This document shows positions 8,448 to 11,140 of a stretch of DNA of 56,792 bases, piece after piece. Below the pieces are notes generated by a model, which did not search any database, was not told the DNA's origin, and saw nothing but the letters and a program-made list of their open reading frames with translations. Both the position numbers and the translations under genes were made by a program. This DNA comes from a virus. Taxonomy: Duplodnaviria > Caudoviricetes. Numbering within the stretch: the stretch's first letter is position 1; the number at the start of each line of letters is the position of its first letter. Location of the stretch: positions 1 through 56,792 of IMG/VR virus record IMGVR_UViG_3300036906_000230, one strand, 5' to 3'.

Positions 8448-10178
8448 CTACTTGCCCTCCGGCTTCGCGCGCTCCTTCAGGTAGTGGAAGGGCGACGGCG
8501 CTGCGGCCGGCTCCTTGTCATCGAAGCCCGGATAGCTGCGCAGCCTTTCCAGATTGAGGTTGTCTTTGTGGTAGACCGCGCAGCCCGCTTGCATCGCGCG
8601 GTGCGTGACGTCAATTACCCAGCGACGCGGCGGGCGCCAGGCCGGGGTCTGCGACGATGCTCTTGCGCCGCCGATCACGACCCACTGGACGACACTGAAA
8701 TCCATCGCGATCGGCTCGATCATTGGCTCGATGGAGACCCACTTGACCGAGGCTTTAACCTGCCGCATGGCGCGCTCCGTAATCGCCGCGCGCGCCTGGC
8801 AGTCGACAGTGGCGCCGGTCCAGACGTTGTCGGGGAATTCAAACTCGGCCAAGCGCTGAGGAAACTTGGTGAGCATCAGGAAATTCCATTGCTTTGCGAG
8901 ACGCGCGATGCCAAGGACCGTGTCGATCCACTCTTTCGGCACCCAGTTGCCGAACAAATCCGCCATAGAGCAGGTGAAGATGTTCTTCAGTCCAAGGTCC
9001 GTCCCGGCTTCCTTCGGCGGTGTGACATTCAAGGGTGCGCTCAACGCATCCGGCACGATGGAAGGTTCGAACTTCTGCGGGTAATACTTTTCGGCGAGAT
9101 CCCGTGCGTAACAGTAAGGGCAGTTGTGTAAGCAGCCAGTGACCGGGTTCCACGACCATCGCGCCCACTCGATGGCGTCGTTGTCCTGCTTGTTGGGTTT
9201 GGCTTTCGGATTCGTCACCCGGCACGCAGCCTCTTGTTCCGCCGCAGTCAGCGTCTTCCATTCGGCCAGCGTTACCGCGCGTTTGAGCTTGGCGACCTTG
9301 GCCTCGCTGTCCCGCCGAAGGGCCCGCTGATTGTCGAGGAGCTGCTGCGCCTTCTCGGTGATCGCGCGTTCATCCCAGGCGCCGAATTCCACCAGCCATT
9401 GTTCGAACTTGGCGGCATGCTCTTCGACCGCGAACTGGACGTCGCGAATGTCGGCCCTGCCACGCTCGATCGCGCGAACGCAAAGCCGAGTGACCTCGTT
9501 CGGGTCCTGGCCGGCGGCCGCCATTTCCTGGAGCCTTTCGCTGGCGAAGAACTTCTCGTAGCCTCGCGGCGACTTAACGGCGACGAGCGCCTTGACGGCT
9601 GCGTTGGTCTGCTCCACCGTCCATTTGCCATCGAGCAGGCGCGTGATCAGCGCAGGCCAGCAGGACTCGGGCGAGGCGTGAATTTCAGCGAGGTGCTTGC
9701 TGCTGCGGACCAACTGGGATTTGTCCACCTGAGTGGACAAGGCCACTCGCGCCGCGCTCAATTCCACCTGCACCATAGATTTCGAGAGCCCTACGCGGTC
9801 GGCGTAGTCACGAACAGTGCAGCCGGCATCCGTTGCCGCCAGCGCGTGCATCCCGCGCTCCAGCGGCGCGAGTTCGCCCTGGGTGTTCGATAGCAGCAAC
9901 TGCATGAACGCGGTGTCATCGTCCATTTCGCGGACCCACGCCGGGATCTGCTTCAATCCGGCGCGCCGCGCGGCCGCGGTCCGGTTGTGCCCGCTGACGA
10001 TCTGGTAGGCTGCGTCCAGAGGTCGGACCATGATCGCGTGACTGGGGTCGAAACCAGCGGATTTGATCTGCTGCTCGATAGTGGCGATGACATCCTCGCG
10101 TTCCACGATGCGCGGGTTTGCGGGGTGCGGCGTGAGGGAATCGAGATCGATGAGCACCGGGGATAAGAGCGTGCTCAT
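8448..10178 (-). CDS. ParB/Srx N-terminal domain + HTH fused to DUF5131 (phage Gp37/Gp68, radical-SAM-like) domain
   Basis: PHPANPR, YQIVSGHNRTAA (ParB); WNPVTGCLHNCPYCYA, IFTCSMADLFG, LTKFPQR, WVSIEPM (DUF5131). Confidence 0.85.
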   Translation of the reverse strand: MSTLLSPVLIDLDSLTPHPANPRIVEREDVIATIEQQIKSAGFDPSHAIMVRPLDAAYQIVSGHNRTAAARRAGLKQIPAWVREMDDDTAFMQLLLSNTQGELAPLERGMHALAATDAGCTVRDYADRVGLSKSMVQVELSAARVALSTQVDKSQLVRSSKHLAEIHASPESCWPALITRLLDGKWTVEQTNAAVKALVAVKSPRGYEKFFASERLQEMAAAGQDPNEVTRLCVRAIERGRADIRDVQFAVEEHAAKFEQWLVEFGAWDERAITEKAQQLLDNQRALRRDSEAKVAKLKRAVTLAEWKTLTAAEQEAACRVTNPKAKPNKQDNDAIEWARWSWNPVTGCLHNCPYCYARDLAEKYYPQKFEPSIVPDALSAPLNVTPPKEAGTDLGLKNIFTCSMADLFGNWVPKEWIDTVLGIARLAKQWNFLMLTKFPQRLAEFEFPDNVWTGATVDCQARAAITERAMRQVKASVKWVSIEPMIEPIAMDFSVVQWVVIGGARASSQTPAWRPPRRWVIDVTHRAMQAGCAVYHKDNLNLERLRSYPGFDDKEPAAAPSPFHYLKERAKPEGK

Positions 10179-11014
10179 TCCGTAGCCTCCGGAAAGTTGG
10201 GCGGCTTAATGAAGTCGACATGATTCAGGTGCGAGATCACGTACGGCTTGGGAGGCTCCTGGCCGGTGGCCAGCTTCCAGGCGACGTGGTGGTAGTGCGC
10301 CAGGAAGAGCTTCACAGCCCAGCGCTTTGCGCGCGCGTGAACGTGGGCCGGGGGCAGCTTCCCCTGGGCGTACCACTTGTACGCCTCCGTGTTTTTGCCG
10401 ATGTTGAAGCGCTGCAGTTTGGCGCGGGCCTGATCCGCGAACTTGCCAGCCTCGTTCGCGGCGGTCTCCTGCTGCTTGCGCTGCTGATACAGTTGCCCAT
10501 AGAAGTCGCCCTCGCGGCACGATTGCTTGACGAACGATTCGCCGATTTTCCAGCACAAGGTTTTGAGCGCAGCATTCCAAGGCCGTTTGGTCTTCGGCAG
10601 CCATTCCTGCGTGGGGTCGAGGCCAGCGAAACGCCAGATGCGGCCCACGGTCGGACACCGGGCGATATCGATGTGCGCCGCCAGGCCGGCCGAGATCACC
10701 GGGCCGATGCCCACGATCCCTTTGGCCCACACCGCCGCCGGGATGGAGTCGGTCCAGGAATCGAGGGCGCGCTTAATTTGCTTTTCCAGAACCTCGTTCT
10801 GATCGAAGAACCACAGGATCACCATGTGCGGCTCTTTCGATTCCGCGAGCGCGCGGACCTGGTTGCCCGCCGCCTTTCTGTTCTCCTGGATCGCGTAGTA
10901 AGCGTCAACGAGGTACCGCGCTTCGTTGGTACTCAGTGTTGCTGCGGCCGTAACGAGGTCGCGTTTGAGACGCTGGATTGCCTCCGGCGCCTCGATGATA
11001 GTGGTGGTTTCCAT
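10175..11014 (-). CDS. tasA: TasA-like Nop-domain RNA-binding protein (IS110 C-terminal/Transposase_20-related, no nuclease domain)
   Basis: Coiled coil followed by KGIVGIGPVISAGLAAHIDIARCPTVGRIWRFAGL, WNAALKTL, AHVHARAKRWAVKLFL; no RuvC DEDD or HNH domain; RBS GAGGGAG before ATG 11014; dual-repeat array directly upstream. Confidence 0.8.
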   Translation of the reverse strand: METTTIIEAPEAIQRLKRDLVTAAATLSTNEARYLVDAYYAIQENRKAAGNQVRALAESKEPHMVILWFFDQNEVLEKQIKRALDSWTDSIPAAVWAKGIVGIGPVISAGLAAHIDIARCPTVGRIWRFAGLDPTQEWLPKTKRPWNAALKTLCWKIGESFVKQSCREGDFYGQLYQQRKQQETAANEAGKFADQARAKLQRFNIGKNTEAYKWYAQGKLPPAHVHARAKRWAVKLFLAHYHHVAWKLATGQEPPKPYVISHLNHVDFIKPPNFPEATE

Positions 11015-11029
11015 ATCGACTCCCTCTAT

Positions 11030-11140
11030 TCGCTCTTGCCCATTGGTGCTCTCGCGCCCATTGGCTCGCTCCGACACGATGGTTCCTTCTGGCTGCGTGG
11101 CTCGCTCGGCCTCGATGGTTCTCTCGGTCTCCTTGGCTGC
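11030..11140 (-). ncRNA. TIGR-like dual-repeat guide array A1 (3 units of 36 nt)
   Basis: Minus strand: GCAGCCA aggagacc GAGAGAACCA tcgaggcc GAGCGAGCCA cgcagcca GAAGGAACCA tcgtgtcg GAGCGAGCCA atgggcgc GAGAGCACCA atgggcaa GAGCGA; CCA recurs every 18 nt. Confidence 0.85.

Follow-up and report, generated by a model that had tools for sequence, protein, structure and literature searches.

What is the gene for a 279-residue protein that directly follows a short, strictly phased repeat array in the virus record IMGVR_UViG_3300036906_000230 (IMG/VR; Duplodnaviria; Caudoviricetes): the remnant of a transposase, a regulator of its own operon, or an RNA-guided protein with its guides? The window, i.e. 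the whole stretch of DNA that was analysed, is the complete virus record of 56,792 bases, and nearly all of its genes are located on the minus strand. Our analysis indicates that the gene, tasA (10175..11014, minus strand), and the repeats, which form array a1 (11031..11138, minus strand) and recur at further sites, very probably constitute a dual-repeat TIGR-TasA system of a temperate phage. A TasA locus with a dual-repeat TIGR array is also what a sequence-only reading of this DNA had proposed, and this proposal is borne out by a phmmer search of the Protein Data Bank, by Foldseek, by the NCBIfam family NF052498 and by arrays in related loci. The system is already known in kind and the protein has been catalogued: Faure et al. 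2025 (PMC12045711) list an identical 279-aa protein, from another contig, in their Table S1, together with the Tas proteins of two related loci, L001 and L002, and a preprint of 2026 has demonstrated RNA-guided repression by a TasA protein. The locus is one more example of a family published in 2025, to which it adds scattered sites of one to three guide units, an in-frame unit in a helicase gene, seven units interleaved with genes for ParB-methyltransferases, and a plausible host lineage.

TasA is a nuclease-free Tas protein

TasA is a Tas protein of 279 residues that comprises a coiled-coil hairpin and a putative Nop-type RNA-binding domain and is free of a nuclease. Its gene starts at ATG 11014, just downstream of the ribosome-binding site GAGGGAG. 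A 300-aa extension with a GTG start was considered and rejected, as it would enter the array and the length of the homologues (275-283 aa) speaks against it. In a phmmer search of the Protein Data Bank the best match is TaTasR (9MTY; E 1.7e-19), followed by SpTasH (21KL and others; E 3.3e-12), whereas IS621 reaches an E-value of only 0.13. The alignments start at residue 145 of TasR and residue 138 of TasH, i.e. past the N-terminal nuclease domains of these proteins.

The AlphaFold2 model (45 sequences; mean predicted local distance difference test score, pLDDT, 88.5) contains helices only and no strand, with a hairpin (residues 29-58 and 64-88) and a helical domain. As judged from this all-helical model TasA is without RuvC or HNH fold, in agreement with the absence of both domains noted in the sequence-only reading. 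In Foldseek the top 10 rows are all TasR or TasH chains (probability 1.0, template modelling score 0.5-0.7), and IS621 and ISCro4 come next. At the family level, TasA matches NF052498 ('TIGR-Tas system RNA-guided endonuclease') with 203.8 bits at a cut-off of 100, and PHROG 4285, labelled 'transposase', matches it end to end. Matches to Pfam stay below threshold, with 20.2 bits versus 24.8 for HNH_3 and 19.2 bits versus 21.3 for Transposase_20; the HNH_3 match covers 26 C-terminal residues (261-287 of the 300-aa reading) and coincides with a Tyr/His loop, ..PYVISHLNHVDFIKPP.

No match to the Pfam Nop domain was found in TasA at E ≤1, and no Nop5 chain is among the best Foldseek rows listed. 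The assignment of TasA as a Nop protein is derived by homology from the published structure of TasR (Faure 2025, PMC12045711) and is put forward with this qualification. Thus, when TasA is compared with Tas, Nop5 and IS110 by sequence profiles and structure, as had been suggested, Tas proteins come out on top with IS621 far behind, and a direct match to Nop5 or Pfam Nop is missing. The expectation that standard annotation would call this gene a broken IS110 transposase holds for PHROG 4285 and some other sources, but not for NCBIfam, whose release 20 names a TIGR-Tas family. Both labels are misleading for a nuclease-free TasA, be it 'RNA-guided endonuclease' in NF052498 or transposase in PHROG 4285 and several records.

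The C-terminal loop deserves attention, as Tyr258 and His265 (the second His of the loop) align with Y289 and H296 of SpTasH in the phmmer alignment, and these two residues cut the pre-tigRNA of SpTasH (PMC13421893). In the 45-sequence alignment H265 never varies, and the conservation of Y258 is at least 90%. The loop has pLDDT values of 59-73 in the model, as expected for a flexible loop. According to Xu et al. 2026 (10.64898/2026.09.09.750476), such a Tyr/His dyad is retained where the guides are of the dual-repeat type and has been lost from stem-loop systems. In total, 5,525 homologues of TasA were found, and among the 120 listed the closest ones are from Bryobacterales and other Acidobacteria.

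A three-unit guide array precedes tasA

Array a1 lies in the 133-nt gap between the DUF2303 (yfdQ-like) gene, its upstream neighbour (11147-11980, minus strand, stop at 11147), and the tasA ATG, ending 3 nt before the tasA ribosome-binding site. It consists of three 36-nt units (11103-11138, 11067-11102 and 11031-11066), each composed of a half edge repeat AGCCA, an 8-nt spacer, a 10-nt loop repeat, a second 8-nt spacer and a half edge repeat GAGCG, the full edge repeat being the 10-mer GAGCGAGCCA. Read 5' to 3' on the minus strand, the gap opens with ..CGCAGCCA / AGGAGACC GAGAGAACCA TCGAGGCC GAGCGAGCCA (first unit), continues with CGCAGCCA GAAGGAACCA TCGTGTCG GAGCGAGCCA (second unit) and ends with ATGGGCGC GAGAGCACCA ATGGGCAA GAGCGA (third unit), followed by ATAGAGGGAGTCGAT and the tasA ATG.

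The regular recurrence of CCA every 18 nt, which had first drawn attention to this gap, is exact: CCA occurs six times at 18-nt steps, and the seventh position is taken by a 3'-truncated edge repeat, GAGCGA, continued by ATAG. Tandem Repeats Finder reports a period of 36 with 2.4 copies (11061-11146), consistent with the three units of alternating edge and loop repeats and 8-nt spacers that had been described. The 10-mer edge repeat alone is not significant (11 matches with ≤1 mismatch in the window versus a shuffle mean of 8.45), and the evidence therefore rests on the phased pattern: the skeleton CCA-N8-GA-N5-CCA, taken three times over as half-units, has 7 matches in the window and none in each of 100 dinucleotide shuffles.

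The two spacers of the tas-proximal unit (11031-11066), ATGGGCGC and ATGGGCAA, are nearly identical, so that the target rebuilt from this unit is a near-palindrome; no match to it was found.

Eleven guide units lie at six sites

Guide units are not confined to the gap upstream of tasA. A search with the complete unit skeleton, AGCCA-N8-GNGNGNNCCA-N8-GAGCG (≤1 mismatch), yields 11 matches in the window, all on the minus strand, versus 0 in 100 shuffles. The 11 units are distributed over six sites, some of them up to 38 kb away from tasA, and every unit lies on the coding strand of the surrounding genes. Thus, the repeat pattern of the sequence-only reading stands, whereas its strand has to be corrected to minus and its single array has to be replaced by six sites.

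A single unit at 14976..15011 (minus strand) is located within the gene for an SNF2-type helicase (13531-15228), where it is read in frame as 12 codons (residues 73-85) in the linker that precedes the SNF2 domain, which begins at residue 118. This linker is variable, and the unit is an exact 12-codon insertion in it; the helicase linkers of the related loci L009, L010, L020 and L043 have no unit.

Seven of the 11 units are found within 3 kb, interleaved with two ParB-methyltransferase genes (all on the minus strand). A single unit (49632..49667) begins with the last base of the TGA stop codon of the open reading frame (ORF) 49667-50098. Mini-array a2 (49311..49418) has three units and ends 14 nt upstream of ATG 49296, the start of a gene for a ParB_N/N6-N4 DNA methyltransferase (47761-49296), and the two units of mini-array a3 (47690..47761) follow the same gene, the first base of a3 being the last A of its TAA stop codon. 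Another single unit (46751..46786) lies just upstream of the ParB_N domain in the second ParB-methyltransferase gene (ORF 45475-47139). In this 554-aa ORF the matches to PHROG and Pfam begin at residues 108-149 and the guide unit corresponds to residues 118-130. The ORF has probably been called too long, its real start being a GTG that overlaps the end of the unit; this start would give the protein an N-terminus like that of its paralogue (47761-49296).

All six sites open with ..AGCCA and close with GAGCG, beyond which unrelated sequence follows, i.e. they are bounded by truncated edge repeats. CCA terminates all edge repeats and 10 of the 11 loop repeats, the remaining loop ending in CCC. 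Like the edge repeat, ten of the loop repeats carry G at their first and third positions, and one reads GAA; GAG/GRG may act as a box D motif.

The presence of a unit within the frame of a non-tas gene and of units far from tasA implies that array finders that search only near tas would under-count guides. The parts of the TIGR literature covered here contain no mention of units inside non-tas genes or tens of kb from tas, and it has been described that guide units can sit within the tas coding sequence itself (Xu et al. 2026, 10.64898/2026.09.09.750476).

Promoters next to the arrays were not found beyond chance. The best sigma-70-like site of the region (50733-50762, minus strand; TTGACT, 18 nt, TG-CATAAT; 10/12) lies upstream of the block with the ParB-methyltransferase genes and seven of the units; sites of this kind are no more frequent in the region than expected by chance. 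Outside the matches to the unit pattern, the stretch 50600-50665 (minus strand), directly before the ATG of ORF 50259-50594, contains a half edge AGCCA, 9 nt, the loop-like GAGAGATCCA, 15 nt and the edge-like GAGCGAGCCG, with insertions or deletions and out of phase, and is possibly a decayed guide unit.

Related loci keep the repeats and change the spacers

If the repeats frame guides, they should recur beside other tasA genes with other spacers, and this is what the related loci show. The three units recur in L001 (98% identity), where they differ by three bases, two of which fall in spacers. In L002 (80%) and in L009 and L043 (75%) the order DUF2303-array-tasA is kept and the spacers differ, and in L010 (67%) and L020 (62%) the gap between DUF2303 and tasA is without an array. 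In the more distant L004 (54%), on a viral contig of 95 kb, tasA is preceded by about 25 units and followed by about 10; the edge repeat is unchanged there and the spacers are again 8 nt long. Altogether, the repeats are kept and the spacers are different from those of the window in L002, L009, L043, L004, L006 and L007.

Units away from tasA recur as well. The contig of L002 carries about 12 units at four places, all on the tasA strand, and a ParB-methyltransferase gene with 77% identity (L007; L002 contig) is followed after its stop codon by an array with the same junction, ..CGTAAGCCA, and other spacers. The contig of L004 has, on the strand opposite to tasA and at a distance of about 18 kb from it, a long run of edge repeats in 36-nt steps (G003:C1:26949-28289; 27 exact copies listed), and arrays far from tas therefore occur in this clade. 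Among the units read in L002, L004, L009 and L043, only one spacer, ATGGGCGC, also occurs in the window; it comes from L002 and is spacer A of the tas-proximal unit here (11031-11066) and spacer B of the tas-proximal unit in L002 (3935-3980).

In a broader set, an autocorrelation detector found an array with a period of 34-38 in 71 of 80 further viral tasA loci and in none of 20 shuffles of the window. This set includes several near-duplicate loci and the matches were not inspected individually; the detector also responds to a coding repeat in L004 and overlooks short arrays, among them those of L002, of L009 and the one at the third site of the window. A further candidate, two exact edge-repeat 10-mers in L008 (on a contig of a metagenome-assembled genome, MAG), turned out to be a repeated coding segment and was rejected. 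Arrays thus accompany tasA in the homologous loci L001, L002, L009, L043 and L004 and, as judged by the detector, in most of the larger set.

Comparison with known TIGR-Tas systems

TIGR arrays have been described as alternating edge and loop repeats of 8-12 nt with spacers of about 9 nt and truncated edge repeats at both ends, and TasA as the solo-Nop form of Tas (Faure et al. 2025, PMC12045711); by 2026, 20,096 tas loci and 6,685 annotated arrays had been reported (Xu et al., 10.64898/2026.09.09.750476). The system closest in its guides is SpTIGR-TasH from Salicola phage CGphi29 (9W03, 9W04, 21KL; PMC12045711, PMC13421893), which has the same 5+8+10+8+5 guide of 36 nt with a loop ending in CCA, a homologous Nop domain and the aligned Tyr/His processing dyad. 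Its edge repeat, AAGCGAGCCA, is one base apart from GAGCGAGCCA (AAGCG|AGCCA there), and its synthetic tigRNA reads AGCCA + 8 + AAGACAACCA + 8 + AAGCG (Table S3, PMC12045711). SpTasH differs from TasA in that it has an N-terminal HNH nuclease and cuts DNA, whereas the protein described here starts at the coiled coil; in its loop repeat, which is AAGACAACCA there and variable and GAGAGAACCA-like here; and in the start of its repeats, AAG as opposed to GAG/GRG. The sequence-only reading had taken the 8-nt spacers as a departure from described arrays. This does not hold, as the SpTasH guide has 8-nt spacers (Table S3), the spacers of SpTIGR total 16 nt (PMC12045711), and the phrase 'the 8 nt Spacer A' appears in a preprint of 2026.

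The best match in sequence and fold, TaTasR (9MTY, the TasR-tigRNA-DNA complex of Faure et al. 2025, PMC12045711), likewise uses dual-repeat 36-nt guides with a box C (CCA) ending both repeats; it differs by an active N-terminal RuvC domain, 9-nt spacers and repeats starting with UG. In architecture TasA resembles FpTasA (dual repeat, binds 36-nt RNAs), MbTasA and PlTasA, which are also solo coiled-coil plus Nop proteins without a nuclease and with an expected role as RNA-guided DNA binders or repressors; no chain of these three is among the matches of TasA in the Protein Data Bank, be it by sequence or by fold. FpTIGR has 9-nt spacers (18 nt in total) instead of 8-nt spacers, and PlTasA (10.64898/2026.08.11.744272) uses stem-loop guides, whereas the guides here are of the dual-repeat type. 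For MbTasA, guide-dependent repression of a reporter and of a chromosomal gene as well as a shift of target DNA in an electrophoretic mobility shift assay have been reported (Xu 2026, 10.64898/2026.09.09.750476). The RNA-binding fold of TasA is distantly related to that of IS110/IS621 recombinases and archaeal box C/D Nop5, but a DEDD catalytic domain, a bridge RNA and a fibrillarin-binding domain are all absent from the system described here.

Proposed mechanism and targets

Based on the homology to SpTasH and on the anatomy of the units we suggest that the long minus-strand operons would be transcribed through the guide units and that a TasA dimer would bind each unit via the shared ends of the repeats, i.e. 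box C (CCA) on the 3' side and GAG/GRG on the 5' side. The C-terminal loop with Tyr258 and His265 might then cut the precursor between the two halves of the edge repeat (GAGCG|AGCCA), in the way the aligned residues of SpTasH cut its pre-tigRNA, to release a 36-nt tigRNA of the form AGCCA-A8-loop10-B8-GAGCG. Spacer A would pair with one strand and spacer B with the other at a contiguous 16-bp site composed of A and the reverse complement of B. As TasA has no nuclease domain, the complex would only bind and bend DNA and might in this way block transcription or replication of the target, which may be a rival mobile element, a host gene or part of the phage's own life cycle.

Candidate targets of 16 bp were rebuilt as spacer A plus the reverse complement of spacer B, an order chosen because 8-nt 3' overhangs have been reported for TasR (PMC12045711), and other joinings or reversed sequences served as controls. 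These searches are among the observations that weigh against the assignment as a TIGR-TasA system. In the window, no target matched at ≤1 mismatch and the controls were not exceeded: the targets of the first 8 units have 0 matches at ≤2 mismatches, and those of all 11 units have 9 matches at ≤3 mismatches versus 5 for the control. In 1.36 Mb of related loci there are 17 matches at ≤2 mismatches versus 10 for the control, a number inflated by duplicate loci, and the apparent excess for one unit stems from four copies of one phage. Two candidate host MAGs (5.8 and 8.7 Mb), chosen because they contain relatives and searched with the three a1 targets only, gave 0 exact matches and 2 matches with one mismatch versus 2 for the control, which is the level of chance. 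On the side of the arrays, the loop repeats vary (GAGAGAACCA, GAAGGAACCA, GAGAGCACCA, GGGAGCGCCA, GTGAGCGCCA and others), box D would be G(A)G here, unlike the UG of TaTasR, and the arrays are very short, with 1-3 units compared to most often 5-15 in published ones. Moreover, no site resembling a Rho-independent terminator is found beside any of the six sites, the units being embedded in operons, and in one metatranscriptome run an identical contig of 206 nt lies within the DUF2303 gene, possibly from DNA carry-over, with none over the array or tasA. Concerning these points, a terminator after a TIGR array is typical and not obligatory, the natural targets of TIGR systems are an acknowledged open question (Faure 2025, PMC12045711; Xu 2026), and spacers as short as these are said to defeat target searches (Xu et al. 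2026, 10.64898/2026.09.09.750476). By our estimate, chance matches to a 16-mer would be frequent in a very large sequence collection.

Alternative readings

The position of the units invites the idea that they act mainly in cis, i.e. that binding and cutting by TasA splits or destabilises the messages that contain them or masks the ribosome-binding site of tasA. TasA would then control, at the post-transcriptional level, its own operon as well as the ParB-methyltransferases and the helicase, and might or might not target DNA in trans in addition. This would fit the location of 11 out of 11 units on the coding strand, the units whose first base completes a stop codon (at 47761 and 49667) or whose end falls shortly before the tasA ribosome-binding site and the methyltransferase ATG, the exact 12-codon insert in the helicase and the stop-codon junction that is kept in a relative though its spacers change; furthermore, Xu et al. 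2026 consider that, for intragenic units, maturation of the tigRNA may be linked to translation of Tas. On the other hand, the spacers differ among relatives, as is the case for guides and would be needless for a site acting in cis, and compact phage genomes offer few other locations for an array. Taken together, we consider a predominant action in cis unlikely. We may nevertheless speculate, with the same reserve, that the phage uses the units within its messages together with cutting by the TasA Tyr/His loop as a switch on tasA, the methyltransferases and the helicase, the 36-nt products serving as DNA guides in addition.

The TIGR-TasA assignment also raises the question whether TasA works together with a ParB-domain protein, either the one encoded next to it or the ParB-methyltransferases, in RNA-guided loading or DNA methylation, by analogy with Nop5 and fibrillarin. 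The gene downstream of tasA (8448..10178, minus strand) encodes a fusion of ParB_N (E 3.6e-13) and DUF5131, a phage Gp37/Gp68 domain of radical-SAM-like type that weakly matches the NCBIfam family 'radical SAM mobile pair protein A', and overlaps the tasA stop codon by 4 nt (ATGA), which would couple the translation of both genes. TasParB-TasA operons with dual-repeat arrays and 10-nt repeats have been reported (PMC12045711) and likewise combine a ParB-domain gene with tasA; here, in contrast, ParB_N is fused to DUF5131 and the pairing is not kept in relatives. In the flanks of 84 other tasA loci (tblastn; phmmer with 5,912 stop-to-stop ORFs) a ParB_N-DUF5131 gene occurs in one, the 98%-identical L001, and L050 has a match to DUF5131 only, although tblastn and phmmer are less sensitive than Pfam for divergent ParB, so that a remote ParB beside some tasA loci could be missed. 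Genes other than ParB_N-DUF5131 follow tasA in L002, L009, L010, L020 and L043. Conversely, none of 80 viral loci holding relatives of DUF5131 or ParB-DUF5131 has a TasA within 4 kb, and the fusion is a large family by itself with 1,944 matches. ParB_N-DUF5131 is thus a neighbour in the same operon and not a conserved partner, and its membership in the system is doubtful. As to the ParB-methyltransferases, the clustering of seven units within 3 kb around their two genes is real and an array follows the homologous methyltransferase in a relative, but such methyltransferases are common in phages (PHROG 498), and the cluster is weak evidence of a functional link because the relative that keeps one of the junctions is close kin. 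A ParB-domain partner of TasA is therefore very unlikely.

That TasA is a decayed IS110-family transposase whose repeats are iterons or parS-like sites for neighbouring ParB proteins instead of guides can practically be dismissed: the sub-threshold Transposase_20 match, the 'transposase' in PHROG 4285 and some database names, and three ParB_N genes adjoining units are outweighed by the lead of Tas structures over IS621 by 11 to 18 orders of magnitude in E-value, by the thousands of homologues, mostly of similar length among the 120 listed, which form a maintained family and no remnant, by a model without DEDD/RuvC fold or beta-sheet domain, and by the same repeat architecture beside tasA in loci without any ParB gene.

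Phage and host

The window encodes an integrase, two helicases, several DNA methyltransferases, a terminase, a portal, a major head protein, a tape-measure-like protein and an endolysin. As integrase, terminase, portal, capsid/head, tail and lysis genes are present, it is a near-complete temperate tailed phage from peat soil. Array a1 is letter-identical in contigs of three out of three DNA runs from three peat or permafrost studies. L001, the 98%-identical copy, is located in a Bryobacterales MAG, which makes Bryobacterales a plausible host lineage of this phage, and to have such a lineage at hand is rare among TIGR systems.

Rfam and tRNA scans of the window gave no matches. A contig of DNA run X4 (depth 3.35; shorter side 28 letters) skips 76 nt (window 11125-11202), joining the inside of the first guide unit to the end of the DUF2303 gene, and may be a variant or a sequence of another organism. 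Finally, the phage carries three ParB_N-domain genes altogether and at least four DNA methyltransferase genes (6411-7928, 45475-47139, 47761-49296 and 54901-56244): one matches the Pfam C-5 type, two are ParB_N/N6-N4 fusions and one matches the PHROG methyltransferase families of the C-5 gene.

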